In this document: one piece after another, positions 38,504 through 62,220 of the stretch | How positions within the stretch are numbered: the stretch's first letter is position 1 | Layout: every line of letters begins with the position of its first letter | Origin: a virus | Taxonomy: Duplodnaviria > Caudoviricetes | Length of the DNA: 64,000 nt | Virus record (IMG/VR): IMGVR_UViG_3300026493_000002 | Strand: one strand, 5' to 3' | The notes under the pieces: model-generated | The model's input: only the letters and a program-made list of their open reading frames with translations | Database searches by the model: none | What the model was told of the DNA's origin: nothing | Program-made: the position numbers and the translations under genes

Positions 38504-38511
38504 GAGCCCAT

Positions 38512-39327: not shown

Positions 39328-39337
39328 GGAGTAGTAC

Positions 39338-40895: not shown

Positions 40896-40903
40896 AGGCA
40901 CCA

Positions 40904-41197: not shown

Positions 41198-41204
41198 GGT
41201 CACC

Positions 41205-41864
41205 ATGCTGCTGATTCGACCCGAAACCGAACGTCACCGTGGCATTCTGGAACTCCAGAGAGGCGATGACTTCTCGCACAAGCAATACGTCAAGCGCATC
41301 CTCGATCCGGTCACGGGCTTCCGCGCTTTCAACGCCTACCTCGACTTCAACCAGGAGGGTCCGAACTGGATCACCTTCTCCTGCGAGCATTACGATCACG
41401 GCGCACGCGAGGAACTGGAGCTCACTCGCAAGGTGATGCAGACCAAGACCGGCGACAAGGGCGACTGCGCACGTGCCGCGATTGCGACCTATCTCGGCCT
41501 GCCCCTCAGTGCCGTGCCCGACTTCATCGAGACGTCCGACGGTATCGCACGCAACTTCTGGATGGACATTGAGGAGTTCTTCGAGGACAGAGGCTTCTCA
41601 TTCGTGGAGACCAGGCTGGTGCGTGAGTTCGCGGGCGAGGAACGACGCACGGCACCCGCAGGCCTGTGGCTGGCGTCGGGCACCACCGTGAGGTCCGAGA
41701 GCAACAACAAGACCCACATGGTCGTGATGAAGGGCTTCGACCTCTACCACGATCCGCACCCGAGCAACGCCGGTCTGTTGAAGATCAATCACGGCTGGAT
41801 AGCCCAGCTGAGTAGCGTCATCGACGTTGCCTCGTTCGGTCGCCAAGTGACCATAGTACCGTGA
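41205..41864 (+). CDS. papain-like fold (peptidase C39-like) protein
   Basis: Q..TGDKGDCARAAIATYLG..VPDF...THMVV...LYHDPHP, Cys-His-Asp arrangement. Confidence 0.55.
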   Translation: MLLIRPETERHRGILELQRGDDFSHKQYVKRILDPVTGFRAFNAYLDFNQEGPNWITFSCEHYDHGAREELELTRKVMQTKTGDKGDCARAAIATYLGLPLSAVPDFIETSDGIARNFWMDIEEFFEDRGFSFVETRLVREFAGEERRTAPAGLWLASGTTVRSESNNKTHMVVMKGFDLYHDPHPSNAGLLKINHGWIAQLSSVIDVASFGRQVTIVP

Positions 41865-41912
41865 CCACTGAGCGGCATCCGGCAGAGACGCTGGGTGCCG
41901 CTCTGTCGTTTC

Positions 41913-42047
41913 CGGCATCTGTCAAACCCGAGTGACAGCCCACGTGAGGCACGCTCAGACGTAGCCCTTGACACGTCTAACAGCGTGTGTTATACTGTAA
42001 GTGAGCAGCGACTAGACGCCACGACGATTCGGGTTTGACAGATGCCG
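41913..42047. repeat. perfect 19-bp inverted repeat bracketing a promoter
   Basis: CGGCATCTGTCAAACCCGA (41913-41931) and its reverse complement (42029-42047). Confidence 0.9.
41968..41996 (+). promoter_or_regulatory. sigma70-type early promoter P1
   Basis: TTGACA-17 nt-TATACT with extended TG. Confidence 0.9.
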
Positions 42048-42091
42048 CTCAGTGACACTCACACAAAAACGACAACACAGAGAGCTACGCA

Positions 42092-42610
42092 ATGGCTAAG
42101 AAGACGAACACCCCGGCAGCACAGCAGATTCAGGGCACGCGCGTTGTGATTCCGAAGGAGGCCTATCAGGGCCTGCCCGCAGTGCGCTTCCCCAACGACG
42201 GCGGTTACTCCACGGTAGTAGGCGTAGGCAAGACGGGCGAGTATTGCAGCTGGAAGAAGGCACGCGATGCGACGAAGCACCGCAGCGGGTTTACTGTCAT
42301 CGGCAACGCGCTGGTCGTCGGCAGCTACGAGGCATCGGGTCAGTCGATTGCCAAGTTCCTGGCGTCGCACGGTCTGACCGCGAAGGCGGACGCCGGCAGC
42401 CTCTCGGGTTTGCCCATCCCGGCAACGGGCAACACGCGCCGCTGGGCCACGCAGGCTGAGACTGACGCCTACGTCAAGGCCGAGTGCGAAATGCGCCGCA
42501 AGATGCTGGGCAAGGCAGTCGCCTACGCGAACGCACAGCGGCGCAAGGCAGAGAAGATGCTGGTCGAGGCGCAGCGCACGCTCGACGCCTGGTCCAATCT
42601 GGACTGCTGA
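42092..42610 (+). CDS. hypothetical early protein
   Basis: First gene after P1. Confidence 0.7.
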   Translation: MAKKTNTPAAQQIQGTRVVIPKEAYQGLPAVRFPNDGGYSTVVGVGKTGEYCSWKKARDATKHRSGFTVIGNALVVGSYEASGQSIAKFLASHGLTAKADAGSLSGLPIPATGNTRRWATQAETDAYVKAECEMRRKMLGKAVAYANAQRRKAEKMLVEAQRTLDAWSNLDC

Positions 42611-42699
42611 TCGCATCACGGTGGAGGGGCCTCGCGCTCCTCCATCGGTCAAACCCGAATACCACATCCCATATCAGACTACATATCAAGGACACCACA

Positions 42700-43395
42700 A
42701 TGGCTACCACCAAGACCGCTGCCTCCGTCAAGACCGCCGCTGCCAAGAAGCTCGCTACTGCCACCAAGACTGCCGGGTTCAACGCCGTCGGTGAGTCAAA
42801 CCCGAGCGCCGAGCGCCGCATGACGGCAGCCGACCGCAAGGCGCGCATCCAGCGCATGGCCAAGCTCATGTTCAACAGCGAACTGCGCATCCTGATCGAC
42901 GAGGTGGACACCAGAAAGCACTCGCATGGCGGCCGCGCCCTCTGGCGCTTGGCCCAGACCGGCGAGGTGTTCACGGTGCACACGTCCCACGACGGCGTCG
43001 AGACCGGCCTGGAGATTTCGGCGTACCTCGCGAACGAACTGTACGACTCGGGTTTGGTCATCCGCCGGGCCATCAACGGTGCCGACCAGCTGCTGCACGC
43101 ATGGGAGGACACCGCCGGCTTCAACAACCCGAGCCGCAACTACGGCCTGCCGGGCGCCATGAAGGTGTCGGACCTCAAGCCGGGCGCCATGCTGACCGTC
43201 CGCTTCCTCGACACCGAAGAAGACGAACCCGCAATTCTGATCAGCCGCGACAGCATCGACCGCAAGAACAAGTCCGGCTACGAGTACAGCGCCAAGGTGC
43301 TGTCGCGCGATGCCGACGGTGACTGGACCGCACGCAGCATTGGCTGGCACCAGATCATGATGCACAACGGCATGGTCAAGACCTTCCGCGACTGA
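42700..43395 (+). CDS. hypothetical early protein, A/K/T-rich N-terminus, SH3-like C-terminus
   Basis: AAGGA RBS, ATG 42700. Confidence 0.7.
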   Translation: MATTKTAASVKTAAAKKLATATKTAGFNAVGESNPSAERRMTAADRKARIQRMAKLMFNSELRILIDEVDTRKHSHGGRALWRLAQTGEVFTVHTSHDGVETGLEISAYLANELYDSGLVIRRAINGADQLLHAWEDTAGFNNPSRNYGLPGAMKVSDLKPGAMLTVRFLDTEEDEPAILISRDSIDRKNKSGYEYSAKVLSRDADGDWTARSIGWHQIMMHNGMVKTFRD

Positions 43396-43475
43396 CCGCT
43401 GGCGAGTGACACAAACGAGGGGCGTCGGGCATTGGCTCGCCGCCCCTCTTGGCGCAAACCCGAATGGACACACCG

Positions 43476-44159
43476 ATGACGACCGCAACCCCGACCGCAC
43501 CGAGCAAACCCGAACTGAGCCGCGCCACCGACGGCCTGCCGATCTACACCGCTGCCACGCAGATCGAACGCGAGCATGGCCCCGACTTCGCCATCCAGAT
43601 GCCGGCACCCTTCGGGTATGCAACCCTCCTGGTTGCGTGCAGTGACGTTACCCCGCTTCGCGTCTGGAAGCTGCACGCCGACTACGTGCGTCAGGGACCG
43701 ATCCACGTCGGCTACATCCCGTACGCCAAGTGTCGTCCCCACATCGACAACGAGTTCAGCCCTGGCTGCCTCATGCGCTCGCACAACCCCGGGTGCGAGT
43801 TTGACGACCGGGACGCATACGCTTACAACGAACCCGAGGCGCTCTTCCTGTTGAGCCGCGTACATCCGCGCTACGGCATGAACCCGGACCGCATGGGTCT
43901 GCCGCTGCCCGAAGGCGTCACACCCGAACACCTGACGGTAGGCACGCGCGTGCTGCTCCGCTTCACCGACCGCCGCGACCGTGAGGGCATCATCACTCGG
44001 GTTGCTCCTCCGGGAAACATCGGCGACGCGGCTCTGCCGATGCGCGCCATGGTCGACAACTCCTCTGACGAGGACGCGTACCCCGTGTTCAGCGAAGTCA
44101 CTGCCGACTACCGACAGGTCGTCAAGGTCCTCGGCAAAATCAAGCTCCCGATTCTCTAA
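43476..44159 (+). CDS. hypothetical early protein, SH3-like C-terminus
   Basis: Start uncertain (43464 or 43476). Confidence 0.65.
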   Translation: MTTATPTAPSKPELSRATDGLPIYTAATQIEREHGPDFAIQMPAPFGYATLLVACSDVTPLRVWKLHADYVRQGPIHVGYIPYAKCRPHIDNEFSPGCLMRSHNPGCEFDDRDAYAYNEPEALFLLSRVHPRYGMNPDRMGLPLPEGVTPEHLTVGTRVLLRFTDRRDREGIITRVAPPGNIGDAALPMRAMVDNSSDEDAYPVFSEVTADYRQVVKVLGKIKLPIL

Positions 44160-44194
44160 TCCGCTGTCCAAACTACAACAAGGCATAGACCACA

Positions 44195-45700
44195 ATGAAC
44201 ACCAAGACCAAGACCACCAAAGAAGCCGGCCGCGCGATGAAGAAGAAAAAGAACCCGGTCGCCGCAGCGCAGAAGGCAGCAGTCGTGAAGAAGGCGGTTG
44301 CCAAACCCGAATCCAAGATCGGCCTTGCGGGACGCGGTCAGGCCGTCATCATGTGCGGTGGCCTGACTCTGGAGCAGTCGCTCGAAAAGATCCGTGAACT
44401 CCCGAGCGCATCGGTGATCCAAGCCGAAGTGCTGTGGAACACTGACTTCTCGATCACGCCGAAGACGAGAAAGAAGTGGCGCACGGCCGCATCCGCCGTC
44501 CTCCTCGCCGACCTCATTGAGGAGCTCAGCCAGGATTCGATCATCGACACGCGCGAGTATCTGGCCGCGTTGCAGAACGATATCGGTATCATCCGCTGGA
44601 CCAAACCCGCTGCAAAGAAAAAGCAGGCTACTCCCGTGTCGACGCCTGCACCGCTTCCGTCCGTCCCCACGCCGAACGCGGTGATTATCGGCGGCCGCAC
44701 GTTCACCCAGATCCTCCAGATCTTTGGCGCCATGCCGCAGAAGACGATGAACTCGGTGGTCGCCACGTGGAACGAATGGGAGGACGAGATTAACCGCGGC
44801 CCCAACGTGACCCGTGCGAAGCTGACGCCCGAAGAGTTCACTGCCCACCTGCAGAAGGTGTACGACGGCCCTAACGGGTTTGAAACCGTACGCGGGTTCT
44901 GCCACTACCTGATGCACGAAGAGGGCCTGATCGACTGGAACAAGACCAAGCTGCCGCTGCCGCTGCCCGAAGAGTTCTTCGCCGAAGCTCCCGAAGAGCG
45001 CAAAATACCGTCCAAAGCCGTCATCCAGGCAGCCGCCAGGGCGTCGAAAAAGGGCAGTGGCGTACACAATACGAGTTGCTCCCAGTTGAACAAGATTCGC
45101 ACCGAAACCGTCGCGGCTCTTGTCATGCGTGGTGCCGATCCCCAAAAGCTGGGCCTGGCACCGCAGTCGCACCATGCCAACGCGATCTGCGAATCCGAGG
45201 CGGTCGAGGCCGTCACCGTCCAGTACATCAATCATCGTATGATGGAAGTGGTGATGATCCTCGGCCCTCTCGGCAAGTCCAAGACGTACCGTGCGCTGTC
45301 GGCAACCGGTGACGAAATGTGGGTGCATCCCGCGCAGATCGTCAACGTGCGGGAAGACGTGACGGTCGGCTTTGCCGAAGTCCTCGAGGCCGCCAACGAC
45401 CAACTCCACCTGGGTCGCAATCCCACCGCACTCCTCTACTTCATGAAGGAGTACAACGCCTACCTGACCTACGGCGGCAACGTCTACACCGCAGGCAGCC
45501 GCGTGCCGTTGTTCACCGCCGACAAGTCGGTCATCAAGGATCTGGAGAATCAGCCGGGTGTCGTCGAGCGCCTGATCTGGGACAAGGGCAGCGACCTGTG
45601 CAAGGTGCTGTGCGTCGAATCCGATCCGGTCGTCCGCAAGCTGCAGGTCGAAATCAACTTCGAGGATCGCGCTCGCAAGCTCGAAGACGTCCTGAACTGA
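44195..45700 (+). CDS. hypothetical protein (501 aa)
   Basis: Long codon-biased ORF, followed by a terminator. Confidence 0.75.
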   Translation: MNTKTKTTKEAGRAMKKKKNPVAAAQKAAVVKKAVAKPESKIGLAGRGQAVIMCGGLTLEQSLEKIRELPSASVIQAEVLWNTDFSITPKTRKKWRTAASAVLLADLIEELSQDSIIDTREYLAALQNDIGIIRWTKPAAKKKQATPVSTPAPLPSVPTPNAVIIGGRTFTQILQIFGAMPQKTMNSVVATWNEWEDEINRGPNVTRAKLTPEEFTAHLQKVYDGPNGFETVRGFCHYLMHEEGLIDWNKTKLPLPLPEEFFAEAPEERKIPSKAVIQAAARASKKGSGVHNTSCSQLNKIRTETVAALVMRGADPQKLGLAPQSHHANAICESEAVEAVTVQYINHRMMEVVMILGPLGKSKTYRALSATGDEMWVHPAQIVNVREDVTVGFAEVLEAANDQLHLGRNPTALLYFMKEYNAYLTYGGNVYTAGSRVPLFTADKSVIKDLENQPGVVERLIWDKGSDLCKVLCVESDPVVRKLQVEINFEDRARKLEDVLN

Positions 45701-45711
45701 TCCATCCCAAG

Positions 45712-45741
45712 GCCCCTGCCCTAACCCGGCAGGGGCTTTTT
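45712..45741 (+). terminator. intrinsic terminator
   Basis: GCCCCTGCC/GGCAGGGGC stem followed by TTTTT. Confidence 0.9.
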
Positions 45742-45825
45742 CGTTGTGGTGAAGATACCGTGAAATCTCAAACCCGAACTGTTCGCCTCTGAGGCGCTGT
45801 CTGACACGGCTTGTTAGCAAGACTC

Positions 45826-45854
45826 TTGACGACTCTAACAGACTGTGTTATACT
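45826..45854 (+). promoter_or_regulatory. sigma70-type early promoter P2
   Basis: TTGACG-17 nt-TATACT with extended TG; spacer shares TCTAACAG..TGTGT with P1. Confidence 0.88.
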
Positions 45855-45933
45855 GAAAGTGCGACGAATCTAACAGAAACAACGATTCGGGTTTGCGATC
45901 CTACCAAAACTACAACATCAAGGAATTGCTAAA

Positions 45934-46287
45934 ATGAAGACCCTGACTTTCGCTGCTGCCAAGAAGATCATCAAGAGCGTTGCCGACGAGCGCAGCATCT
46001 GGAACCAAAGTAGCAGCTTCCACCGCGGCGGTTACTGCGTCCTGTTCGACCGCTGGAACAACAATCGCGGTCATCACGTCAAACTGGAATTGACCTTCAT
46101 TCAGAGCGGCGCGGTCCTGCTGGCATGTGTCGGCGCGGTCGACACTCACACGGGCCGCGACTACGAATCGAACTTCATGCGCGGTCCTGAACTGCGCGCG
46201 GCAATTCAGGTTGCGGCCCAGACGACCGGCCTGAGCAAGAAGCAGGCGAGCGAAGTCATCGCGTATCTCGACGCGCTGGTCGCCTGA
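45934..46287 (+). CDS. hypothetical early protein (paralog trio, 1)
   Basis: AAGGA RBS; shared C-terminal helical motif. Confidence 0.7.
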   Translation: MKTLTFAAAKKIIKSVADERSIWNQSSSFHRGGYCVLFDRWNNNRGHHVKLELTFIQSGAVLLACVGAVDTHTGRDYESNFMRGPELRAAIQVAAQTTGLSKKQASEVIAYLDALVA

Positions 46288-46331
46288 TTCAAACTCAAAC
46301 CCGAATCATTCAATCTACAGGGAATTCACCA

Positions 46332-46736
46332 ATGTCCAAGTTCAATCGCAACAAGCTCGACCTCGTCGACCTGCTGGAAACCGCCGACCACTTCATGTCC
46401 AAAGCGGGTTACATCACCACGCTGCACGCGAGTCGCCGTCGTCGCGGCAAGCGTCGTAACCCCGAAGTGACTGCCGAAGGCAAGCGCATGATTCGCGCCG
46501 ATGACGGCAAGCGCTGGAGCTACGTGCTGACGTTCAAGGTCATCAAGGATCAACTGATGGCTTCCTTCTGTGTCGAAGGCGATCACGCGCAGAACGAAGA
46601 CGCGCCGAGCCATTTCAGCGTCTTCGCTCAAGGCAGGCTGCTGCGCAAGAACATTGTTCGGATCTGCAAGAAGGCTGGACTGCCGATGGCTCTCGCCAAC
46701 GACGTGTGCGCCGCGCTGGACCGTATCAAGGGCTAA
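46332..46736 (+). CDS. hypothetical early protein (paralog trio, 2)
   Basis: Shared C-terminal helical motif. Confidence 0.7.
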   Translation: MSKFNRNKLDLVDLLETADHFMSKAGYITTLHASRRRRGKRRNPEVTAEGKRMIRADDGKRWSYVLTFKVIKDQLMASFCVEGDHAQNEDAPSHFSVFAQGRLLRKNIVRICKKAGLPMALANDVCAALDRIKG

Positions 46737-46788
46737 ACCCGAAACACTCCGCTTCACCAATCGAATCTACTACTCTCTGGAGAACACC

Positions 46789-47175
46789 ATGTCCAAGTCT
46801 GTCGCCATCAACGCCAACAACCTCAACGCCAAGCAACTGATCGACGCCGTCACGAAGCGCGCCGAGTTCGACTCCATGGAGGTTGTCAACGCGCGCTCCA
46901 AGTTCAACAAGCACGCGGTTGCCATCGAGTTCCCCGCCGTAAAGGGCAAGAAGAAGGCTGAGTGGATGCCGACCCTCGTTTTCATGGCCCACGACATTGA
47001 CGGGTTGACTGCTCGCCTCCATCTGGAAGAGTGGGAAGGTGAAGGTTACATCGAAACGGAATACACCAACGGCGCCAAGCTGCGTAAGCGCATCCAGAAG
47101 GCTGCGAAGAAGGCTGGCATCAAGAAGAAGGCGGTCAAGGACTTCACCAACTTCCTGGACAGCCTCGTTGGCTAA
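46789..47175 (+). CDS. hypothetical early protein (paralog trio, 3)
   Basis: GGAG RBS, ATG 46789. Confidence 0.7.
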   Translation: MSKSVAINANNLNAKQLIDAVTKRAEFDSMEVVNARSKFNKHAVAIEFPAVKGKKKAEWMPTLVFMAHDIDGLTARLHLEEWEGEGYIETEYTNGAKLRKRIQKAAKKAGIKKKAVKDFTNFLDSLVG

Positions 47176-47218
47176 ACCCGAAGAGCGCCATATCAACCAA
47201 GTCGAATGTGAGTCTACA

Positions 47219-48361
47219 ATGTCTACGATCAAATCACTGAACATCTACAACGTTGCCGATATCGGTCAGTACGTCGAGCGGGTTATCTCCGACGTCCGTG
47301 AGGCTCACATTCGCACTTGGTTCCGTACCACCTACCTGCGTTGGTTCCGGCACGAATCGGACAACGTGCGTATCATGGTTCCGGGCGTGTTTCGCAACCT
47401 GCACGAACCCTTCGGCCTGCGTTCGACAAAGACGGACGTGCTGGCGACGTCCTTGAAGCATGACGTGTTCCACTTTGTGGACGATTACCCCACGGAGCAG
47501 TGGGCCATCGACGCGATGCTTCACGGTAAGCTGTTGTGGTGGGTTGAGCCGCGTCGTCGCGCGACGGACATTCTGCGCCACTGGATCGACTTCATGCGCA
47601 CGCTGCCTGCCGATAAGCCGATTCGCCAAAGCGTTGACGCCATGATCGAAGCCGTGCGGAAGTACGATGAAATGCTGGAGCGCCAGAAGTTGATCGACAA
47701 CCTCAACGACGGCGTTTTGAAGGTTCACGAAGATCCGCAACGTGGGTTCCAGATAGTTCGTCTCGACACGAGGGAGGCAGTGCGCGCCGAGGGCGCCTAC
47801 ATGAAACACTGCATCTGGACCAGTCGATATGATTTGCGCCTGCACACTAGGCTGTTCTCAATCCGTTCAATCGAAACTGGTTTGCCGCTAGCCTCTATTG
47901 AAGTGCGCGCCGCCTCGATCAGGCTGCCTGCGGACAAGGTCAAGACGTTCTGCGGCTTGTCGGTATTCAAACGCGAGTTCATGGACTTCGACGGTTATGT
48001 GCTTGTGCAGGTCTCAGGGCCGCGCAACCGTGAAGTCGCTGACGAAGTTCTCGCCAGTGTCAACGAGTGGTTTGTTGATTCCTGCGATCATCGGGTCAAC
48101 TTGGTATCTCCTCCGCCGGAAGGAAATCCGACCTACGTCTTCGAGGTCTCCGGCAAGAGTGAATACGGTGACGACGATGACGATGGTGAAAACGACGCCC
48201 ACTTTGACGACGGTGAAGCTGACGGCGAGGACGATGATGATGACGCCGAGGACGAAGCCGAACCGGAAAACGACGATGACAAGGACAAAGCCGAGGACGA
48301 GGACTTCGACGACGAAGCCATCGAAGAAATCAGTGCCGCCCTTGATTACGTCGATGACTAA
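47219..48361 (+). CDS. PcfJ-like domain protein with acidic tail
   Basis: AVRAEGAYMKHCI...LFSIR...PLASIEV; long D/E tract. Confidence 0.7.
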   Translation: MSTIKSLNIYNVADIGQYVERVISDVREAHIRTWFRTTYLRWFRHESDNVRIMVPGVFRNLHEPFGLRSTKTDVLATSLKHDVFHFVDDYPTEQWAIDAMLHGKLLWWVEPRRRATDILRHWIDFMRTLPADKPIRQSVDAMIEAVRKYDEMLERQKLIDNLNDGVLKVHEDPQRGFQIVRLDTREAVRAEGAYMKHCIWTSRYDLRLHTRLFSIRSIETGLPLASIEVRAASIRLPADKVKTFCGLSVFKREFMDFDGYVLVQVSGPRNREVADEVLASVNEWFVDSCDHRVNLVSPPPEGNPTYVFEVSGKSEYGDDDDDGENDAHFDDGEADGEDDDDDAEDEAEPENDDDKDKAEDEDFDDEAIEEISAALDYVDD

Positions 48362-48395
48362 CTGAAACACCTACAACTTTCTACAGGAAACACCC

Positions 48396-48668
48396 ATGAA
48401 CACCCAGACGATCCTCACCCAGAACAATAAGCACTTCCTCCTCAGCGAAGGCGCAACCAAGATCGTCAAGGCGCTCCAGAAAGCAGGCGACAACGGCCTG
48501 ACCTATGCCGAGCTCCAGACGAAGACTAAGACGGCACAGGCCTCCATCTACGTGTTCGCGCAGCGTCTGCGCGACGCCAAGCTGGTCGACACGAAAGAAG
48601 GCACCATCAAGCGTCTGGTGTTGAAGAACGCCAAGACTGTTTCCATTGGAAACGCAACCCGACTTTGA
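48396..48668 (+). CDS. winged helix-turn-helix protein
   Basis: KIVKAL...GLTYAELQTKTKTAQASIYVFAQRLRDAKLV. Confidence 0.65.
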   Translation: MNTQTILTQNNKHFLLSEGATKIVKALQKAGDNGLTYAELQTKTKTAQASIYVFAQRLRDAKLVDTKEGTIKRLVLKNAKTVSIGNATRL

Positions 48669-48678
48669 GGTAAAGAAC

Positions 48679-49158
48679 ATGGACAACAGGAGCCAGTGGC
48701 ACGTACACAGTAACGCCGCAGTACGGATGAACGGATCGGGTTCAAGCATAGCCGATGAAGTTCAGGTCACCTACTACAACAACTGCGGCCTACAACCACG
48801 TAGCGAAGACACGCTGCGACACAAGATGGCTGAGCGCGTTACGTCGCTTCTGAACCAGTTGCCTCAGGACGAATTTGGCATGCCCTGCTTGCCTGATGAC
48901 TTCGAGAGCCTGCTTCGCAAAGCGAAGAACTGGGACGACCTGCAGGAAGTGCGTAGACAGTCCTACGCCAACAGCACCGATCCTGATCCAATGTGGAAGC
49001 GACTGGCGCTGCAGGGCAAGGTAACAGATGCGATCAAGTCGCACCGCATTTTGCACGGTAGCAGTCTCGCCGAATCGCGCGACGTTGTGAACCACTACAT
49101 CAACAATCAGAACAAGGGCGGCGACACCTCGCTGAACTCCGTTCTGGAACGACCGTAA
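48679..49158 (+). CDS. hypothetical protein with L7/L12 C-terminal-like motif
   Basis: GKVTDAIKSHRILHGSSLAESRDVVN. Confidence 0.5.
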   Translation: MDNRSQWHVHSNAAVRMNGSGSSIADEVQVTYYNNCGLQPRSEDTLRHKMAERVTSLLNQLPQDEFGMPCLPDDFESLLRKAKNWDDLQEVRRQSYANSTDPDPMWKRLALQGKVTDAIKSHRILHGSSLAESRDVVNHYINNQNKGGDTSLNSVLERP

Positions 49159-49174
49159 ATAGGAGAACACCGCA

Positions 49175-49510
49175 ATGAACGTCAAGAACACCGAACTGCC
49201 GCAGAACGTGAGCGACACCCTGAACAAGCTGGTCGGCACCCTGAACGAACAGGATCGCCTGCGTCTCGCAACGGCCCTGATGCTGTCGATCCCGCACACG
49301 CTGATGGGCCCGACCATCGGCGCAGCGAACAACATGATCCACGCTGACGCCAACATGGATCGCGCCCATGAAGTGCTGCGCGTCTTCTCGCACGTGGAAC
49401 GCGACGTTCGCTTGCACGTCGAGGCGCTGGTGAAAACCGGTGTGGAACTCAGCACTCTGGCCACGGTGCTGAACTACGTGAAGCCCGACCCCGAGCCGGT
49501 AGAGGCTTGA
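49175..49510 (+). CDS. hypothetical protein
   Basis: AGGAG RBS. Confidence 0.7.
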   Translation: MNVKNTELPQNVSDTLNKLVGTLNEQDRLRLATALMLSIPHTLMGPTIGAANNMIHADANMDRAHEVLRVFSHVERDVRLHVEALVKTGVELSTLATVLNYVKPDPEPVEA

Positions 49511-49514
49511 CCGC

Positions 49515-49757
49515 ATGGCGGCCGCAGTACCAACGAAAGCGCAGGCAGCAAAAGCGTGGCGCGACCTGAAAGCCGCCGAGTCGGATATGGCTCGGCTCAA
49601 GACGTACAAGCGCATGGATCAGTCTATGCGCTCTCGCTACAACAGGATGCGGGACCTCCACTTTGAGAGCGAACGCATCCTGACCGCATTCTTCTCTGGC
49701 AAGCCCTACACGGCGCCTGCTGCCGAAGAACCCATGGACGACAATCTGCCGTTCTAA
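49515..49757 (+). CDS. small hypothetical protein
   Basis: 80 aa, ends DDNLPF. Confidence 0.6.
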   Translation: MAAAVPTKAQAAKAWRDLKAAESDMARLKTYKRMDQSMRSRYNRMRDLHFESERILTAFFSGKPYTAPAAEEPMDDNLPF

Positions 49758-49796
49758 CCGAAGTACAATCCCTAAAACTACAACAAGAGGTGTCAT

Positions 49797-50105
49797 ATGA
49801 AATACCGTATCGCAATCATCGTCGCAGCCGCATTGGCAATCACTGCCTGTTCGGAGAGCAAACCCGAGCCGGCGAGCATCGAACGTTCCTTGCCTCACTT
49901 CATCGTGAACTGCAAGGAACAGTACAAGCGCAACAACAACCAGACCATCGACACGCCGCTGATGTTCCAGTATTGCGGCTGTCTCAGCAACACCTGGGCG
50001 GCCGAGACCAGCAACGGTCGCACGGAGCAGAACAAAGTCTTCCAGAACGAAATGCTCGCGCGATGCCGCGAAGTCACCGCCGTCACGCAGCCGAAGGGGA
50101 ACTGA
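49797..50105 (+). CDS. lipoprotein, 4-Cys family (paralog 1)
   Basis: Lipobox ITAC; F...C..YCGC..CRE. Confidence 0.75.
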   Translation: MKYRIAIIVAAALAITACSESKPEPASIERSLPHFIVNCKEQYKRNNNQTIDTPLMFQYCGCLSNTWAAETSNGRTEQNKVFQNEMLARCREVTAVTQPKGN

Positions 50106-50107
50106 AC

Positions 50108-50422
50108 ATGAAGCGCACCATGATGCTGCTCGCACCGACCGCCGTGCTGCTGATTGCAGCCGCCTGCTCCAACAACGAGGTCGCTACGCGGCCTCCGAAC
50201 CAGCCCGACTTTGTTCTCCAGTGTCGGGCCGACATTCACAACATGACTGGCTCCAGCAAGGTCAGTCCTCTCGCTGACGCCTATTGCCTGTGCGTCAACG
50301 TTGAAGCACTGGATATCAGCGGTGGCTACGCTCGCAGCATCAACCCGAGCGAACGCAACACCATCGTGTCCATGTGCCGCGAGAAAGCGGAGCTCAACGT
50401 AACCCAACGCCCGGTGAATTGA
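50108..50422 (+). CDS. lipoprotein, 4-Cys family (paralog 2)
   Basis: ATG 50108; lipobox AAAC; F...C..YCLC..CRE. Confidence 0.75.
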   Translation: MKRTMMLLAPTAVLLIAAACSNNEVATRPPNQPDFVLQCRADIHNMTGSSKVSPLADAYCLCVNVEALDISGGYARSINPSERNTIVSMCREKAELNVTQRPVN

Positions 50423-50423
50423 C

Positions 50424-50729
50424 ATGGCCGCTTCCAGGAAGAAGACGACGTTTCAGGTTGCAGTCGATCTGGAGGACGTCAACACCAGCGACTGGTACCC
50501 GCTTGAAGGTACATCGGCAAATCCGGTACCGGAAATGCTTCCGCACTTGATGCACTCCGGGTCCTACGAAAGTCTCACGATCAAGGTGCGTAAGCGTATC
50601 AAGGCCGAGGCGCGTAAGGCCCGCCGCGAAATGAAGTACAAGATCGCGGTGGAGGTTCTGCACTACGATCCGACCGACATTGACGAATCCATCGGCACGT
50701 TCTTGGTCGCCAACGTCACCATGTGGTAA
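50424..50729 (+). CDS. hypothetical protein
   Basis: 101 aa ORF. Confidence 0.6.
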   Translation: MAASRKKTTFQVAVDLEDVNTSDWYPLEGTSANPVPEMLPHLMHSGSYESLTIKVRKRIKAEARKARREMKYKIAVEVLHYDPTDIDESIGTFLVANVTMW

Positions 50730-50766
50730 CAGGCTTCAACATCCCTCAACTACCCAAACTACAACA

Positions 50767-51369
50767 ATGCCCCAGAATAATCGTCCCTTCCTGAGCATCG
50801 AAGACCTGGTAGCAGCGGCCCTCGATCACGACTACGTGTCCAACAATCGCCGTCTCGTTCGTTTCGACCTGAATCAAATCCGTGTGGCTATTCGCGCACG
50901 GTTTGTCACCAAGCCGATGCTGTCCAAGATCTTCGGCATCTTGGAAGAGAAGCAGTACATCATCATGCGGCCTAGTGACTTGGCGGAAATCATCCCGTCC
51001 GAGTTCGAGGACGTGTACGTGATGATGAAGCGTCCTCCGATGATGGTGGCGTCGACCATCATGTTCGGGCCTGACGATCTGGACCGCGCCGAATTGCGAC
51101 TGCTCGGTGAAGTGGAGCTCGCAGACGGCAGCCGCATCAAGCACGGCAAGGTCAAGCGCGTGCCCGCCAACGGTGACTGGATCAAGTACCGCGACAAGAA
51201 GGGCGCCATCCACGACGTGCTGGTTGTTGACGTTCGCCGTGATGGCTCCTCCAAGCACTTCGCGTACACGGTGTTGGCCCGTGTCGGCAAGGCGGGCAAG
51301 ATCGACAGCATCGACATTACGGCTGACTCCGTGGTCGAACTCGGCCGCAGTTCGTTCGAGGGGAAGTGA
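50767..51369 (+). CDS. hypothetical protein with SH3-like C-terminus
   Basis: ATG 50767 after an A/C-rich leader. Confidence 0.65.
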   Translation: MPQNNRPFLSIEDLVAAALDHDYVSNNRRLVRFDLNQIRVAIRARFVTKPMLSKIFGILEEKQYIIMRPSDLAEIIPSEFEDVYVMMKRPPMMVASTIMFGPDDLDRAELRLLGEVELADGSRIKHGKVKRVPANGDWIKYRDKKGAIHDVLVVDVRRDGSSKHFAYTVLARVGKAGKIDSIDITADSVVELGRSSFEGK

Positions 51370-51371
51370 GC

Positions 51372-51761
51372 ATGTCGGTATCACGCAACAGTAGTCACGT
51401 CAACTCCAGTGTGGAGTGCCCGCGCTGCCTCGCTCTTCCCGGCGAGCGTTGCCGCACCAAGATGAACCGCCCGTTCGTTGCCGAGTGTGACGCTCACCAG
51501 GAACGGGTTGCTGTCGTCAAGGCAAATCTGGCGGAGTTCGAGATTCTGAAAGAACGCGCGCGTGCTGCTGCGCAGGTCAACGTCGGCAAGATGGATCCGC
51601 GCGCGGCCGAGTTCGTGTACCACTACACGCGCCTGTGTCGCCGTCTCGGCATCGCATTGGCCCACGAGGACGATCGCGGTTCTTTCGTCATCACCGACCA
51701 GGACCTCCAAGACAACATCAACTGGGTCAGTCACGCCGACGTTCGACTCAAGGAGAAGTGA
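51372..51761 (+). CDS. zinc-finger protein
   Basis: CPRCLALPGERC...H..R. Confidence 0.65.
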   Translation: MSVSRNSSHVNSSVECPRCLALPGERCRTKMNRPFVAECDAHQERVAVVKANLAEFEILKERARAAAQVNVGKMDPRAAEFVYHYTRLCRRLGIALAHEDDRGSFVITDQDLQDNINWVSHADVRLKEK

Positions 51762-51762
51762 T

Positions 51763-52200
51763 ATGAACCATCGCCGCAGAATGGAAATCGCCGAGAAGCT
51801 GCGGGTTGCGCTCCAGACCAAGAACGCTGCCGAACGGCGTTCAGGCTTCACTCGCGCAGCAACCGTCGAAATCTTCAAGACGGAATGCAGCCAGTTGATC
51901 GACAAGCACGGAGCCGAGCTTCTGGAACTGATGGAAGCCGTGAGCGAAGAAGAGTCGACCGAGCCTGATGACGGCCCGAAAGTCTTCGCCGATATTGAGT
52001 CTCTGCGCTCGGAGTTCAACGAAGCATCGGACGCGCATTCGGCCTTGAACACCAGTCCGAAGGCACTGGCCAACTTTGAACGCTCGGCTGGTGTCTTCTT
52101 CGCTGCCAACATGAACATCATCCGCGACTGGCTGGCGGGCAAGAAGATCGTTGCGCTCAACAGCGATGGCAGTGTCAGCGATACGAAGCTCGGCGGTTGA
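51763..52200 (+). CDS. hypothetical protein
   Basis: AAGGAG RBS. Confidence 0.7.
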   Translation: MNHRRRMEIAEKLRVALQTKNAAERRSGFTRAATVEIFKTECSQLIDKHGAELLELMEAVSEEESTEPDDGPKVFADIESLRSEFNEASDAHSALNTSPKALANFERSAGVFFAANMNIIRDWLAGKKIVALNSDGSVSDTKLGG

Positions 52201-52203
52201 GCC

Positions 52204-52611
52204 ATGAAGGGCCAGAAGAAGAAAGCCTTGTGGGCAGCAAAGCGTGCGGCCAATGCCGAGAAGCGCGAAGCCGAACGCAAGGCAAACACCGCCAAGCCCT
52301 TCAGGAAGAAGCGCGAGTTTGTAGAACTGAAACCCCGTGACTCCAAGTACGTCATCACCGATGAAATGAAGCGAGCCGCGGAAGCACCGTCTGCTGCAAT
52401 GCCTGCACCAACTGGAGTCGTGCGGGTCGACGGCAAGAAGGCCAAGCGCAACATGGGCGAGGACGAGTATGCCCGTCGTGAGGCCGAAGCGCAGAAAGAA
52501 ATCAAGCGCAAGAAGACCAAGGTCGCCCCGCTCTACAACAAGGGCGGGTATCAGTACGTGGGCGACGACGCGCCGCCTGAAATCATCAAGAACCTGGGAA
52601 GAAAGGTATGA
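52204..52611 (+). CDS. basic hypothetical phage protein
   Basis: C-terminal APLYNKGGYQY motif recalled from large myophages. Confidence 0.65.
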   Translation: MKGQKKKALWAAKRAANAEKREAERKANTAKPFRKKREFVELKPRDSKYVITDEMKRAAEAPSAAMPAPTGVVRVDGKKAKRNMGEDEYARREAEAQKEIKRKKTKVAPLYNKGGYQYVGDDAPPEIIKNLGRKV

Positions 52612-53003
52612 CTGACAAGAGCAACGCTTTCGACATTGCCAAGCCGTTTGGCACCGGCACCGTGCGCATTCTCACTACGAGCCCGGCTACGCGCTTCTAC
52701 TCTGGCGCAGCGTTTGAGAAGCTCCGCCGCGAACAGGAGGGGAGTCAGTGCCGTATCCACGAGGTGAAGGACACGCCGCAAACCCGAACGATGCTGAACG
52801 CCTACAAGACCAAGGGCGTCAAGAGTCGTCGTCTGCGGAAGCGCGGTGTCATCGTGATGGGCAATCCCGTCGTGATGAATATGTCCTCAACGTTGTGCGA
52901 ACGCATCGCAGCGAAGATTGTCGAGGTCGACACCAAGCAAAAGACCAAGCGTGACAACTGGAAGGCCCGCTACAAGAAGCCGACCAAGCGAATCAAACGC
53001 TGA
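52608..53003 (+). CDS. basic hypothetical protein
   Basis: ATGA overlap. Confidence 0.6.
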   Translation: MTDKSNAFDIAKPFGTGTVRILTTSPATRFYSGAAFEKLRREQEGSQCRIHEVKDTPQTRTMLNAYKTKGVKSRRLRKRGVIVMGNPVVMNMSSTLCERIAAKIVEVDTKQKTKRDNWKARYKKPTKRIKR

Positions 53004-53013
53004 CGAGAAGATC

Positions 53014-53340
53014 ATGACCAATTCATTGAAAGGCGGCACTGAGACAATCCGTGCCGAACTGAAAGCGGCCGAGTATTCGCGCGGTGTGATCCACGACGTG
53101 ATGCTGGAGCATGTGCCAATCGCCGATCTGCCTGGCGATCTGGGCATTCCCGATGCCGCCGTTATCGCCGTGATCGACAGCATGACCGAAGACGAACTCC
53201 TCGAGGCTGGACGTTGGGGAGTGGACGACACGGTGGTGCGCGACACGATCTTCACCCGTTTGGAAGAGAACGGCCTGCCGCAAGCTGCACTCGATGCCAT
53301 CAAGGAGCAGAAAGATGCCTACCGCACAGTATCGCCGTAA
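53014..53340 (+). CDS. hypothetical protein
   Basis: ATG 53014. Confidence 0.6.
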   Translation: MTNSLKGGTETIRAELKAAEYSRGVIHDVMLEHVPIADLPGDLGIPDAAVIAVIDSMTEDELLEAGRWGVDDTVVRDTIFTRLEENGLPQAALDAIKEQKDAYRTVSP

Positions 53341-53830
53341 GTTCATCACCGAAGACACCCTCGGCATGAAGGTGCACAAGATCCTTCGGGCCAACGGTAC
53401 GGAAGTCGCCACGATCTTCGCAACCACGATCAACACCGTGAATGCGGTCGTGGAAGAACTGAACAACGTGGCCCCGCCGCCGGACGTGCTTTTCCCTCAC
53501 GGTCCGATGCGACTGCACAACGTCTTCAACTGGCGCATCGTCACTCGCCATCGCAACGGCGTGACGCACAGCATCCGCACGCGCACCGGTCAGTACCACA
53601 TGGCAGTCAACGCCATTTTGGCAATGCTCACTGTGGAGGAACTCGACTCGGTGACTCTCGCCAGCGGTGAGTTCCACGCCTGGATAGAAATCTGGATGAA
53701 GGACTTGGTCGATGCGAACGGGCCGTATCCCTACGTGTTCAATGGCCATTCGGCACAAGCCATCATCTACTCCGACGAAGAACTGGAAGCAGCCCGCTTC
53801 TCGATCCTCAACAACGCAGCAGAAGCCTGA
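53315..53830 (+). CDS. hypothetical protein
   Basis: AAGGAG RBS, ATG 53315. Confidence 0.65.
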   Translation: MPTAQYRRKFITEDTLGMKVHKILRANGTEVATIFATTINTVNAVVEELNNVAPPPDVLFPHGPMRLHNVFNWRIVTRHRNGVTHSIRTRTGQYHMAVNAILAMLTVEELDSVTLASGEFHAWIEIWMKDLVDANGPYPYVFNGHSAQAIIYSDEELEAARFSILNNAAEA

Positions 53831-53840
53831 GGTAAGCACT

Positions 53841-54185
53841 ATGGCAAAGTGGATCGAGTACGACGCCGAAGATCAGGCTGGCTATCAGGAGTGGTTGAAG
53901 CAGGCACCGCCCGATGTTCGCGCTCGGATCGAGGAACTCGGGTTGCATCCCGACGTGCTGTTCCGCATGAAGTCCACTGACCAGCGTGTGTTCGTCAGTG
54001 GCTTCGCAGCAGACGGCAAGGTCACCGTCGTCATCCTGCATCGCTACAACACGCACCTGAAAGATCGTCCGCCGCTCGACTTCAAGGTGTTCGGCGTTGA
54101 TCCTCACGATCTTGTCGAGTGTGACCTGCCTGACGGTATCGAAATCATCCGGCGCGAGCCGCGTCCGCAACCCAGGGTTCACTAG
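53841..54185 (+). CDS. hypothetical protein
   Basis: GAGGT RBS, ATG 53841. Confidence 0.7.
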   Translation: MAKWIEYDAEDQAGYQEWLKQAPPDVRARIEELGLHPDVLFRMKSTDQRVFVSGFAADGKVTVVILHRYNTHLKDRPPLDFKVFGVDPHDLVECDLPDGIEIIRREPRPQPRVH

Positions 54186-54193
54186 GAGCAACC

Positions 54194-54439
54194 GTGGCAA
54201 AGGAGTACATGACGTACTGGAAATACTGGCGCAAGAGTGGTTGGGCGGCACGCCATCTGTTCGCGCTACCTGCACTGTTCATCGGACTGGTTAGTCTGTA
54301 CGGCGGAGAGCCCAAGTACAGCTACACCATTTCCATTCTCAGCCAACTGCTGGTTCAGGTGTTCATCCATGGAGCTGTCCTGTTGCTCGCGCGTTTCGAG
54401 TGGAAAGTTGAATACGGAGACCATCACAAAGCTATGTGA
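54194..54439 (+). CDS. small membrane protein
   Basis: AGGAG RBS; two hydrophobic segments. Confidence 0.6.
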   Translation: MAKEYMTYWKYWRKSGWAARHLFALPALFIGLVSLYGGEPKYSYTISILSQLLVQVFIHGAVLLLARFEWKVEYGDHHKAM

Positions 54440-54455
54440 TGATCCATGGACGGTG

Positions 54456-54869
54456 ATGATGCTTAGGGATCATGCCGACGACATGGAGAAGATGATGCCG
54501 GGGATAACCGAGATATTCAACAGGTATATCCCGAGAGCAATCGGCGTTACGTCAGGTCGCAATCGCGTCGTGTTCCACATGGGGCACTACGTGGTGAAAA
54601 TCCCGATGAATTACAACGGCATCGCAGACAACGACTGGGAGGGATCGGTGCGACATAGCCCTGATCCTCGCATGGCGAAGTATGCGCGAACCCGAATGGT
54701 GTATCACACCGAAATACCCGTGGTCTTTATGGAGTATGTAAAGTACATTGCGTACGGCGAACTCCGTGAGCGCGGGCCTGTTCCCCACTGGGTTGACGGT
54801 ATCGACTGTCAGCAAGTCGGGTTTAATAGACGCGGCCAATTGGTCGCATATGATTACGGCATAAGGTAA
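54456..54869 (+). CDS. minimal protein-kinase-like fold protein
   Basis: SGRNRVVF..YVVKIP...N..E...IDCQQVG...LVAYDYG; start uncertain. Confidence 0.55.
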   Translation: MMLRDHADDMEKMMPGITEIFNRYIPRAIGVTSGRNRVVFHMGHYVVKIPMNYNGIADNDWEGSVRHSPDPRMAKYARTRMVYHTEIPVVFMEYVKYIAYGELRERGPVPHWVDGIDCQQVGFNRRGQLVAYDYGIR

Positions 54870-55129
54870 TGACAAACAACAACGAAATGATCCAGCCTGC
54901 ACCGAACCCCAACATCCCCGGCATCGCAGCCACTGGCCTGACGCGCAATCAGGTTGACGTGCTGACCATCGGGCGAGCTACCAACCCCGCTGCAGGCAAC
55001 ACGGGCGTTCGTGTCCAGCGCGGTGTGATGACCGACATGCTCTGGAACTATCTCGATCCGAATCCGGAAGAGACGACGCTCGCAGTCATCAACCTGCAGG
55101 CTCGTATGCGAAAGGCGAGCAAGCCGTGA
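54869..55129 (+). CDS. hypothetical protein
   Basis: TAATG coupling. Confidence 0.6.
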   Translation: MTNNNEMIQPAPNPNIPGIAATGLTRNQVDVLTIGRATNPAAGNTGVRVQRGVMTDMLWNYLDPNPEETTLAVINLQARMRKASKP

Positions 55130-55347
55130 GCCGTATGACTGAGCGTATGGCGGCTCGCGCCAAGGAAATCACGGATCAGACGGTGGCGAGTCTCGGACTT
55201 GATCCTGCCGAAGTCCACGCAGCCGCAGCCTCGATTCCAGTCGGTGAGCAGCGTGTCTTCTCTCCGACCGAACTCAAGACCAGCCGTGAGCGCCACATGC
55301 AGGCTCTCGCCCCGTTCGTTCCCATGCACATGTTCGACGCACTCTAA
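55126..55347 (+). CDS. small hypothetical protein
   Basis: GTGA overlap. Confidence 0.6.
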   Translation: MSRMTERMAARAKEITDQTVASLGLDPAEVHAAAASIPVGEQRVFSPTELKTSRERHMQALAPFVPMHMFDAL

Positions 55348-55360
55348 GGACTAGACCACA

Positions 55361-55912
55361 ATGACTGACAAGACCTTCTCCGATATTGTCAACGCGCGCG
55401 GCACTCACCTCATCAAGATCGAGGGCAGCTGGTTCTGCATCGAAAACACGAACCTCAGCATGGCGTTGAAGTACGGGTTGCAATCGGCCGGCTCGTTGAT
55501 CGACGGCGAATACTTCATCGCCAAGCTCGGCCCGATGACCAACACCGAGGAGTTGGGCGAAGCGCTGGAAGCCTATCGCGCTGGGCGCATCCCCGAAATC
55601 AAGCGCCTCAGGGGACTGGCCATGACCGACGTGGTCTACGCCAACGCCAACATGCTGCACGTCGTCAGTTGCTCCATGCTGGAAGTCAGTTCGATTGAGG
55701 ACGTGTACGCGCTGCAGGAGAAGCAGTTCGGCAAGCCGACCGATCCCACCGTGATCGCTGCCCGTGACGCTGCCACGAAGGCGAGGAAGAACCTGGAAGA
55801 GGCGCTGGCCGAGAATCAGAATGCAATGACCGCACGCTCTGCTGCCGGTTACGCATCGGGTTTGAAGCTGAGGAACACCCCGACCGCGCCGCAAGAATCG
55901 CACGAACTCTGA
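55361..55912 (+). CDS. hypothetical protein
   Basis: AAGGA RBS. Confidence 0.7.
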   Translation: MTDKTFSDIVNARGTHLIKIEGSWFCIENTNLSMALKYGLQSAGSLIDGEYFIAKLGPMTNTEELGEALEAYRAGRIPEIKRLRGLAMTDVVYANANMLHVVSCSMLEVSSIEDVYALQEKQFGKPTDPTVIAARDAATKARKNLEEALAENQNAMTARSAAGYASGLKLRNTPTAPQESHEL

Positions 55913-55947
55913 TCCACCACAACTAAAACTACAACGAAGGAAGTCCC

Positions 55948-56367
55948 ATGTACCGTAACCTCATGATCGCTGCTCTCCTGATGGCAGCAACCAACGTCGC
56001 CAGCGCACGTCTCCTGAACGGCGATGACCTGGAGTACTGCGGAAACACCGCAGGTCTGGCCGAAGTCGCAATGAAGCATCGCCAGTATGTGGATGATCTG
56101 GCGCAGGCCAACAAGACCAATCAGGAGTCGAACGACGGCTCGCCCTCTGGGCAGATGGTGACCGAAGTGTTGACGGCGTTGCTTGCCGATGCCTACATGC
56201 GACCGATCGTGTTCGGTGAGCAGAAGAAGGCGGAGGCAGTCGCCAAGTTCCGTAGTGACGTGCAGCGCCAGTGTTTGGAAACACAGCAGCAGCAGCCGGA
56301 CTACGAGGCACAGCGAACGCCGCCGCGCCCGCCGCAACTCCCCGTGAACAAATCCAAGTCCAAGTAA
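55948..56367 (+). CDS. exported protein
   Basis: Sec signal MYRNLMIAALLMAATNVASA; two Cys. Confidence 0.7.
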   Translation: MYRNLMIAALLMAATNVASARLLNGDDLEYCGNTAGLAEVAMKHRQYVDDLAQANKTNQESNDGSPSGQMVTEVLTALLADAYMRPIVFGEQKKAEAVAKFRSDVQRQCLETQQQQPDYEAQRTPPRPPQLPVNKSKSK

Positions 56368-56380
56368 GGAGCAGCGCATC

Positions 56381-57808: not shown

Positions 57809-57862
57809 TCCGCATTCCGTATTCGACACACGACACCTATCAAACTACAAGGTATATCTCAG

Positions 57863-61577: not shown

Positions 61578-61589
61578 GTGGAGTTTCCC

Positions 61590-62174: not shown

Positions 62175-62178
62175 CAAG

Positions 62179-62186: not shown

Positions 62187-62220
62187 GATTCGTTAGACAC
62201 CTCAGTGAAGTGAGCAACCT

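Follow-up and report, generated by a model that had tools for sequence, protein, structure and literature searches.

A 64,000-nt stretch of DNA from a virus of the Caudoviricetes (IMG/VR record IMGVR_UViG_3300026493_000002), hereafter the window, carries a recurrent short word, AAACCCGA, which we call the box. The window is part of the genome of an uncultured soil jumbo phage. We found that the box is a nucleic-acid signal under strong selection and not a by-product of codon or dipeptide usage. It is the conserved signature of host-polymerase-dependent early units in a group of soil jumbo phages. As to its function, we tentatively favor, with somewhat less than even confidence, an asymmetric operator in dispersed copies through which a phage DNA-binding protein would shut off or gate early transcription. 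Jumbo phages without an RNA polymerase depend on the host for early transcription, and how they then pass to their own promoters is largely unexplained; the PaBG genome paper mentions promoters only in passing, and no regulatory site had been described before in the PaBG/Lu11-like group. With the box, an early regulon can be delimited from sequence alone; several uncultured soil lineages have conserved the box, and there is a short list of candidate readers.

A ten-base-pair box confined to one zone of the window

The box was present in 18 copies in the window, 12 on the + strand and 6 on the - strand, all of them within 41924-55863. An exact count of the remaining sequence (1-41923 and 55864-64000, about 50 kb) returned none. 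The original prediction had reported at least 18 copies on both strands and none in the first 41 kb, and both statements were borne out. Its - strand coordinates were exact, while 10 of its 12 + strand coordinates sat on the preceding C; this C belongs to the motif. The full word is 10 bp long, asymmetric and non-palindromic (C-AAACCCGA-R). Across 56 distinct sites from five or more phage lineages the logo read C(79%)-AAACCCGA-A/G(80%), and the flanks were otherwise without conservation. Because one-mismatch variants were only about threefold denser within the zone than outside, the word is sharply defined.

Several controls were used to quantify the excess. Dinucleotide shuffles of the window gave 1.51 expected copies and a maximum of 6, and by an order-2 Markov model, which expects 0.9 copies, no other 8-mer in the window was as enriched as the box. 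Nine copies lie inside genes, in all three codon phases and on both strands, and a synonymous-codon shuffle of the early genes yielded 0.43 +/- 0.62 coding copies, with 0 of 2000 shuffles reaching 9. Three of the coding copies read K-P-E as AAA CCC GAR and three read S-G-L as TCG GGT TTG. Such codons are sparingly used in this genome (AAA 9% of Lys, TTG 13% of Leu, CCC 22% of Pro), in line with the earlier claims that the motif forces avoided codons and is a selected signal. The shuffles, the Markov enrichment and the codon-shuffled control together ruled out chance, codon usage and dipeptide usage as the source of the box. Tandem gene duplication was also rejected as the sole source of copies: three boxes at the ends of paralogous genes may share descent, yet the flanks around the unchanged box have diverged, and the 15 other copies are unrelated. 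A literature search for the literal motif found only unrelated primer-type occurrences.

The territory of the box is complementary to that of a second motif. CTGTAAA occurs 12 times in the window, always on the + strand and mostly in intergenic positions 5' of replication and modification genes (2008-37386 and 62180), and the box zone falls within the sole CTGTAAA-free stretch (0 copies in 37.4-62.2 kb). Such a distribution is what would be expected of a phage-specific promoter class. Phages of the PaBG group encode sigma factors and no RNA polymerase (PMC7412058), and the family A DNA polymerase (PolA) of the present phage shares 41-44% identity with its counterparts in Pseudomonas phages PaBG and Lu11 and Erwinia phage Yoloswag; a megablast of the region against a phage collection gave no nucleotide-level match. 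The + strand carries nearly all window genes. The first 41 kb is non-structural and contains replication and DNA-modification genes (PolA, clamp, helicase, SNF2 helicase and a C5-methylase-like enzyme), and no protein encoded in 41-57 kb could be assigned to a Pfam or PHROG family. The phage looks lytic, and the layout of CTGTAAA and box fits a program in which host-sigma70 early units are followed by phage-sigma units.

The box core has no GC dinucleotide on either strand, and some copies are preceded by G-C. A related carboxymethyltransferase of phage S-B43 modifies GC sites (PMC12783734). The core would thus stay unmodified if the enzyme of this phage (window 24036-25052) shares the GC specificity.

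Boxed early promoters and their conservation

Two near-consensus sigma70 promoters lie in the zone, P1 (TTGACA-17-TATACT) and P2 (TTGACG-17-TATACT), both with a TG-extended -10, and they form homologous cassettes. A cassette consists of a terminator, a + strand box, 36 or 48 nt, CTTGAC-N3-TCTAACA-N3-TGTGTTATACT, 32 nt and the leader box GATTCGGGTTTG, followed by an AAAAC-N-ACAAC element, a ribosome site and the start codon. The leader box is always in the - orientation, 32 nt after the -10 in the main cassette set (34 nt in locus L009 and 31 nt in the variant cassette of lineage L027). If transcription starts about 7 nt after the -10, it spans about +25 to +34, and a site at that position abuts the downstream edge of the initiating RNA polymerase, as is known of roadblock operators. 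A role of the leader box as a -35-like or -10-like element (TTGACA within GGGTTTGACA; AACGAT before the box) was rejected, since neither is conserved across cassettes. The upstream partner boxes are located beyond intrinsic terminators and are therefore outside any efficiently terminated mRNA. All other intergenic copies in the zone are on the + strand and at gene ends. The earlier assignment of this stretch to the early region thus agrees with the promoter evidence, in that conserved sigma70 cassettes mark it as transcribed by the host RNA polymerase.

Relatives were then compared. They are few: among 5.8 billion proteins, the 501-aa early protein had only two relatives. In a close relative (L002, 97% identity), all 15 boxes of the shared 12 kb were kept. 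A distant relative (REL, 40.8 kb stitched from a 79-kb Logan contig) is syntenic with the window at 48-91% protein identity and has 14 boxes, which begin at its own P1; none was found in the 17 kb before or in the 10 kb after. Seven of the nine intergenic window copies have a counterpart in REL. Coding copies were kept in 4 of 8 alignable cases, as against a background of 13.4% for aligned 8-mers. In gene 1, both genomes have a - strand box, at positions 69 nt apart, and we therefore read this shift as site turnover under selection. The layout is thus kept in relatives, which was the conservation check proposed with the original prediction.

A metagenome scan for the -10 element together with the leader box extended the comparison. 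It returned eight true cassettes, four in the 236-kb JAAIGE contig (52% G+C) and four in the JACCDR assembly, and one chance match (L011). A further, more distant lineage, L027 (51% G+C; JGI Ga0596952_0025117), was reached through the winged-helix protein described below. Its cassette (2505-2619) has both flanking boxes as CAAACCTG / CAGGTTTG rather than CAAACCCG, 105 bp apart, and its gene-end copy, CAAACCCGC, keeps CCCG and lies in a hairpin stem. Besides REL, the box therefore occurs in at least three more soil jumbo-phage lineages. In REL, JAAIGE, JACCDR and L027 the boxes are found only at and after sigma70-type promoters, and the gene-end copies are on the + strand in REL and JAAIGE too. 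A protein-based locus search of IMG/VR gave no match, and a cassette-pattern search of IMG/VR gave two chance matches only, each with a single box and one of them in DNA of 31% G+C.

The spread across lineages bears on whether the same DNA operator could be read by a host global regulator or nucleoid protein, coupling early transcription to the state of the host. The strong sigma70 promoters mark early units built for host machinery, and apart from the small winged helix the early phage proteins belong to no recognizable family, as a host reader would allow. Nevertheless, an identical 9-mer recurs across lineages of 51-60% G+C whose proteins are 40-60% identical and whose hosts probably differ. 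There was no match in 185,579 species genomes, in a scan for the phage cassette and not for a host regulon. To our knowledge, the box matches no bacterial operator consensus. We consider a host reader improbable.

The features of the zone are as follows.

41870-41903, + strand: terminator-like hairpin of 14 pairs (10 G-C) with a T-rich tail, at the end of the preceding non-early gene (41205-41864)
41924-41931, + strand: box, upstream partner of P1, 36 nt before the -35; conserved in REL
41968-41996, + strand: promoter P1; 17-nt spacer, TG-n-TATACT, 11/12 matches; cassette conserved in five lineages
42029-42036, - strand: leader box of P1, reading GATTCGGGTTTG on the + strand, 32 nt after the -10
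42404-42411, - strand: box in early gene 1 (42092-42610), S-G-L; the shifted site of REL is in the same gene
42620-42646, + strand: hairpin without T-run after gene 1, directly 5' of a box; conserved in REL, where a single stem change improves pairing
42651-42658, + strand: gene-end box of gene 1; the next start codon follows 42 nt later; conserved in REL
42798-42805, + strand: box in gene 2 (42700-43395), codon phase 3; orthologous position conserved in REL
43048-43055, - strand: box in gene 2, S-G-L with rare codons; orthologous position conserved in REL
43417-43448, + strand: hairpin without T-run after gene 2, directly 5' of a box; conserved in REL
43456-43463, + strand: gene-end box of gene 2; gene 3 starts 13 nt further on
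43506-43513, + strand: box in gene 3 (43476-44159), K-P-E through AAA and CCC; conserved in REL
44303-44310, + strand: box in gene 4 (44195-45700), K-P-E; missing in the REL orthologue
45709-45739, + strand: intrinsic terminator closing the P1 unit; 12 pairs, then TTTTTCGTT
45770-45777, + strand: upstream partner box of P2, just after a hairpin, with 48 nt between it and the -35
45826-45854, + strand: promoter P2; TTGACG, 17-nt spacer, TG-n-TATACT
45887-45894, - strand: leader box of P2, 32 nt after the -10
46297-46304, + strand: gene-end box of paralogue 1 (45934-46287), 10 nt after the stop; conserved in REL
46735-46742, + strand: gene-end box of paralogue 2 (46332-46736), overlapping the TAA stop (TAA-ACCCGA)
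47174-47181, + strand: gene-end box of paralogue 3 (46789-47175), overlapping the TAA stop (TAA-ACCCGA)
48396-48668, + strand: 90-aa winged-helix protein, candidate box reader by structure comparison and co-occurrence
49860-49867, + strand: box in gene 49797-50105, K-P-E; conserved in REL
52780-52787, + strand: box in gene 52608-53003, codon phase 2; not conserved in REL
54817-54824, - strand: box-like 8-mer in gene 54237-54869 with atypical flanks (T before, C after); not conserved in REL, may be non-functional
55856-55863, - strand: box in gene 55361-55912 with an atypical 3' flank (T); not conserved in REL

Intergenic copies had been said to sit right after stop codons or hairpins, and this is what the list shows: the boxes at 46735 and 47174 overlap stops, and hairpins precede those at 42651, 43456, 41924 and 45770. 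In the JAAIGE phage, a stop-overlapping box also follows members of the paralogue family. The hairpin and box after gene 2 are identical in REL over about 60 nt, and the flanking genes are about 60% identical.

A second early-zone motif, AAAAC-T/G-ACAAC, was seen at 44171, 45908, 49776, 50757, 55927 and 57842, with a variant, AAACGACAA, at 42067. It is on the + strand only and stops 12-20 nt short of start codons, immediately 5' of the ribosome site. Every promoter cassette of the relatives has it without variation, and it may serve early mRNAs as a 5'-UTR or translation element.

The differences in gene content from REL raise another explanation, namely that boxes bound exchangeable early genes and a portable promoter unit, and persist through recombination as cassette-boundary or mobility signals, much as in the PeSL cassettes of T4-type phages or in a miniature inverted-repeat element. 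Two such differences abut boxes, in a comparison of few genomes: paralogue 2 is replaced in REL by a gene for a 233-aa protein right after the box at 46297, and the box at 47174 is missing from REL jointly with the 380-aa gene 47219-48361. Moreover, a multi-copy gene family ends in a box every time in three lineages, and the promoter units have terminal inverted repeats of 9-19 bp with partner-specific flanks; at P1, the region of the 41924 box and 42029-42047 form a 19-bp perfect inverted repeat. On the other hand, a core of 9-10 bp without conserved flanks is short for homologous exchange, and the segment from the upstream box to the -35 differs between cassettes in both sequence and length, as would not be expected of a mobile element. 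Coding copies with rare codons at orthologous positions are not cassette ends, and the general annotation of the window proteins associated no recombinase or transposase with the boxes. We regard a boundary signal as highly improbable.

The box clusters continue beyond the window. A 233-kb ENA contig (ena:ERZ27256723:k141_304056) is identical to the window over 53086-64000, and we read the next 10 kb past the window in it. No box was found for 12 kb after 55863 (the window end plus the contig continuation). Boxes then resumed exactly at a third cassette, P3, at window-equivalent 68.1 kb, 4 kb past the window. P3 has a + box, a promoter and a - box, with the boxes 105 bp apart, and four more boxes follow. 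The total is therefore 18 boxes in the window and 6 in the next 10 kb, with three boxed promoters. The end of the P3 cluster is marked by the next CTGTAAA-bearing gene (L017 19656-20276, window-equivalent about 72.7-73.4 kb), whose 206-aa product has an HU/IHF-family domain at its C-terminus (PF00216, 27.3 bits; cut-off 22.4). Because this gene follows a CTGTAAA motif, it is probably not early.

This arrangement is relevant to a signal for DNA entry, packaging, replication origin, compaction or Chi-like nuclease protection, which we consider extremely improbable. The boxes are clustered, and Chi sequences are often G/T-rich, as is the complement of the box. The phage DNA is probably hypermodified, the core is free of GC, and a related enzyme is specific for GC sites (PMC12783734). 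Against this, there are separate clusters including P3, each starting at a sigma70 promoter, and not one cluster at an end or origin; a fixed position relative to the -10 would be meaningless for such processes, and both orientations are interleaved. An entry-end or compaction signal fits poorly because the boxes begin at sigma70 promoters, hold a fixed leader position and form further promoter-tied clusters. Among the roles first listed for the motif (protection, entry, compaction or transcription), transcription alone is backed by evidence.

Recognition of DNA or pairing of RNA

In the operator reading, a putative phage-made early sequence-specific DNA-binding protein would occupy the boxes. 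The pair flanking a promoter would trap or block RNA polymerase just after initiation, possibly via a small loop, and the co-oriented gene-end copies would be polar roadblocks to elongation. Early transcription would in this way be shut off or gated on the switch to the CTGTAAA-type promoters of the phage. Such a scheme can be likened to the operator/stoperator network of mycobacteriophage L5, but it would operate in a lytic jumbo phage and would serve timing, not immunity.

Spacing and orientation were examined for both the DNA and the RNA level. The two boxes flanking a promoter lie 94, 105 (six cassettes), 106, 116 or 117 bp apart. Expressed as helical turns, these distances are 8.95, 10.0, 10.1, 11.05 and 11.14, and none departs from an integer by more than 0.15 turn. 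Between the window and REL, an 11-nt indel distinguishes the orthologous P2 cassettes. By our own estimate, the phasing of the four non-105 values gives a Rayleigh p of about 0.03, a weak statistic. As for orientation relative to transcription, the intergenic non-leader copies in this genome are 9 + and 0 - (two-sided binomial 0.004), and the leader copy is always reversed. The coding copies (12 in the window plus the next 10 kb; 7 + and 5 -) showed no orientation bias. Since the coding copies are unbiased and - strand copies are conserved too, they fit recognition of double-stranded DNA.

The same orientations can be read at the RNA level. The leader anti-box UUCGGGUUUG at +25 could pair with the gene-end CAAACCCGAA, in cis or in trans through short leader RNAs, for the processing, stability or translation of polycistronic early mRNAs. 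We judge this main rival of the operator reading unlikely, although several observations speak for it. The intergenic non-leader copies are all sense and the leader copy is always antisense to them, and complementarity sometimes extends past the core, to 13 nt for the P1 leader with the gene-end box of gene 1 and to 12 nt for the P2 leader with 46297. Gene-end boxes also adjoin conserved hairpins, which could protect 3' ends after a cut.

Other observations do not agree with RNA pairing. The upstream partners follow terminators, once after a non-early gene, and would be outside the mRNA unless there is read-through. Of the 12 coding copies, five are antisense, with conserved ones among them; the complementarity of the coding pair 42798/43048 stops at the 9-nt core. 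The placement of boxes relative to hairpins is not fixed, as a box may come after the hairpin, inside its loop (L010 8424) or before it (L017 17695). Folds of the leader RNAs were not significant (z -0.5 to -2.3), and Rfam 15 covariance models gave no match in 41000-57000 on either strand at E-values up to 1. Near-integer helical spacing has no rationale in RNA, and in L027 the gene-end copy, with CCCG, would not pair fully with the CCTG of its leader. In purpose, the scheme could be compared with the RNase III sites between T7 early genes and the RegB cuts at GGAG sites in T4 early mRNAs, which are intercistronic early-mRNA processing signals known to act in sense RNA only. As there, a short signal recurs between early cistrons beside hairpins; the difference is that antisense and untranscribed copies are conserved here.

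Several points weigh against the operator reading and have to be set beside its support. The helical phasing rests on few independent values, and two cassettes (L009 and L013) are without an upstream partner. The leader copy is opposite to the gene-end copies, which a single polar-roadblock rule leaves unexplained. Box pairs flanking a promoter share outer-flank bases, at 37 of 70 positions against 26 expected (permutation p about 0.014) and at 27 of 49 against 17 in the set without orthologues. Both partners in L027 carry the same C-to-T variant, a concerted change that keeps complementarity. Flank sharing and the L027 variant look more like pairing selection or gene conversion than protein recognition, and both count in favor of RNA pairing. 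Finally, the gene 1 protein and the paralogue family co-occur with boxes as well as the best candidate reader does.

A narrower pair of schemes, either stoperator-like silencing in a lytic phage by one monomeric winged helix or an RNA-RNA network between leaders and cistron ends, is possible but doubtful. In the first, the winged helix would be a small product of the early operons that reads the exact 10-bp word at +25 of each host-type promoter, at gene ends and within early genes, and so turns off all host-polymerase-dependent expression together. If true, the silencing network or the RNA-RNA network would be an undescribed form of early-gene timing in PaBG/Lu11-like giant phages.

Known systems, candidate readers and neighboring features

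The closest parallels to an operator network are the sites of Cluster A mycobacteriophages (L5 gp71 and the TipsytheTRex repressor; PMC9283540), where L5 stoperators are intergenic and oriented with transcription (PMC9283540). The likeness extends to a short asymmetric site in more than 20 copies, to sites at early promoters and in short gene-end intergenic spaces, some touching stop codons, to gene-end copies co-oriented with transcription (leader copies being reversed and coding copies of either orientation) and to the proposed action on both initiation and elongation. There are also clear differences. The site is 10 bp here and 13 bp in L5, and it is confined to sigma70 early units instead of being spread genome-wide. 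About half of the sites here (12) are within genes in either orientation, which is atypical of L5. The promoter copy here is downstream of the start, inverted and usually accompanied by an upstream partner, and the role would be temporal shut-off as opposed to immunity. In 41-57 kb, Pfam and PHROG searches revealed no gp71-like two-domain repressor (helix-turn-helix plus stoperator domain, about 180 aa), the gp71 sequence itself not being compared, and the only helix-turn-helix fold found among the proteins was the 90-aa winged helix. In the favored reading, the box system would act in the manner of L5 stoperators while standing outside that system. If the box acts on elongation as well as initiation, the stoperator principle would extend beyond temperate mycobacteriophages.

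Three other systems share part of the layout. Operators of the C1 repressor of P1, a temperate phage, are asymmetric 17-bp sites that are scattered over the genome, singly or as inverted pairs, and control several operons. The boxes resemble them in being dispersed, asymmetric and single or in inverted pairs at several operons; they differ in sequence and length, and P1 operators are at promoters and are not known at gene ends or inside genes. The gal operators OE and OI form a looping pair 113 bp apart that works with HU, and each is a palindrome bound by a dimer. As in gal, two sites about 10 turns apart flank a promoter, one of them is transcribed and the spacing, on few independent values, varies by close to whole turns. 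Each site here is by contrast an asymmetric half, looping is only proposed, and the HU/IHF-family gene of the phage follows CTGTAAA and so is probably not early. PeSL (promoter-early stem-loop) units were reportedly described by Arbiol et al. in 2010 as mobile regulatory cassettes of T4-type phages. These are likewise repeated early promoter and stem-loop units among small genes of unassigned function, at points where gene content differs between relatives; the present comparison of few genomes has two such points. Unlike PeSL, the conserved promoter unit contains a discrete 10-bp box of which solitary copies are also present at gene ends and within genes, and no sign of excision or shuffling was seen.

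As for the reader, the protein encoded at 48396-48668 is the most plausible candidate. The original prediction had called it a winged helix-turn-helix protein, and structure comparison supported the fold (TM about 0.7 to ArsR, MarR and HTH_24 models). Only four protein clusters in 5.8 billion contain it, all in phages with boxed promoters, and in each of these four lineages its gene belongs to a boxed early operon. Conservation is highest in the recognition helix, and a monomeric winged helix could cover 9-10 bp. A PDB sequence search with the winged-helix profile gave no match.

The paralogue family (45934-47175; several members in L016) has proteins of 117-134 aa with variable N-terminal parts and a conserved basic two-helix tail at the C-terminus (G-x-x-LR ... 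FLDSLVG). It is multi-copy in three phage lineages, with a box after each gene. The model of a paralogue (pLDDT 86.5) has an alpha/beta fold with two C-terminal helices. A role as an HU-like DNA binder was unsupported, since this confident model had no convincing match among solved or Atlas folds.

Several minor features of the window were also recorded. A gene for a 110-aa HNH endonuclease (PF01844) lies between two replication-region genes at window 394-726 (L020 1263-1595), and because it is absent from the related contig L021, a mobile insertion of the homing type is probable. Weak PcfJ-like matches (E 0.003 and 0.0006, below the Pfam cut-off) were seen for two large proteins, early or middle, encoded at 47219-48361 and 60204-61577.

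Seven metatranscriptome runs contain the stretch. In the four that were examined (window 38500-58400), it was assembled in contigs of 10-74 kb at flat depth, and the largest contigs of those runs reached 190-240 kb. The signal is probably phage DNA in these soil libraries, and with long contigs of uniform depth it was uninformative on transcripts, ends or processing. In isolate-type runs of two organisms, 36-55% of the words of the stretch were present, which might point to the host.

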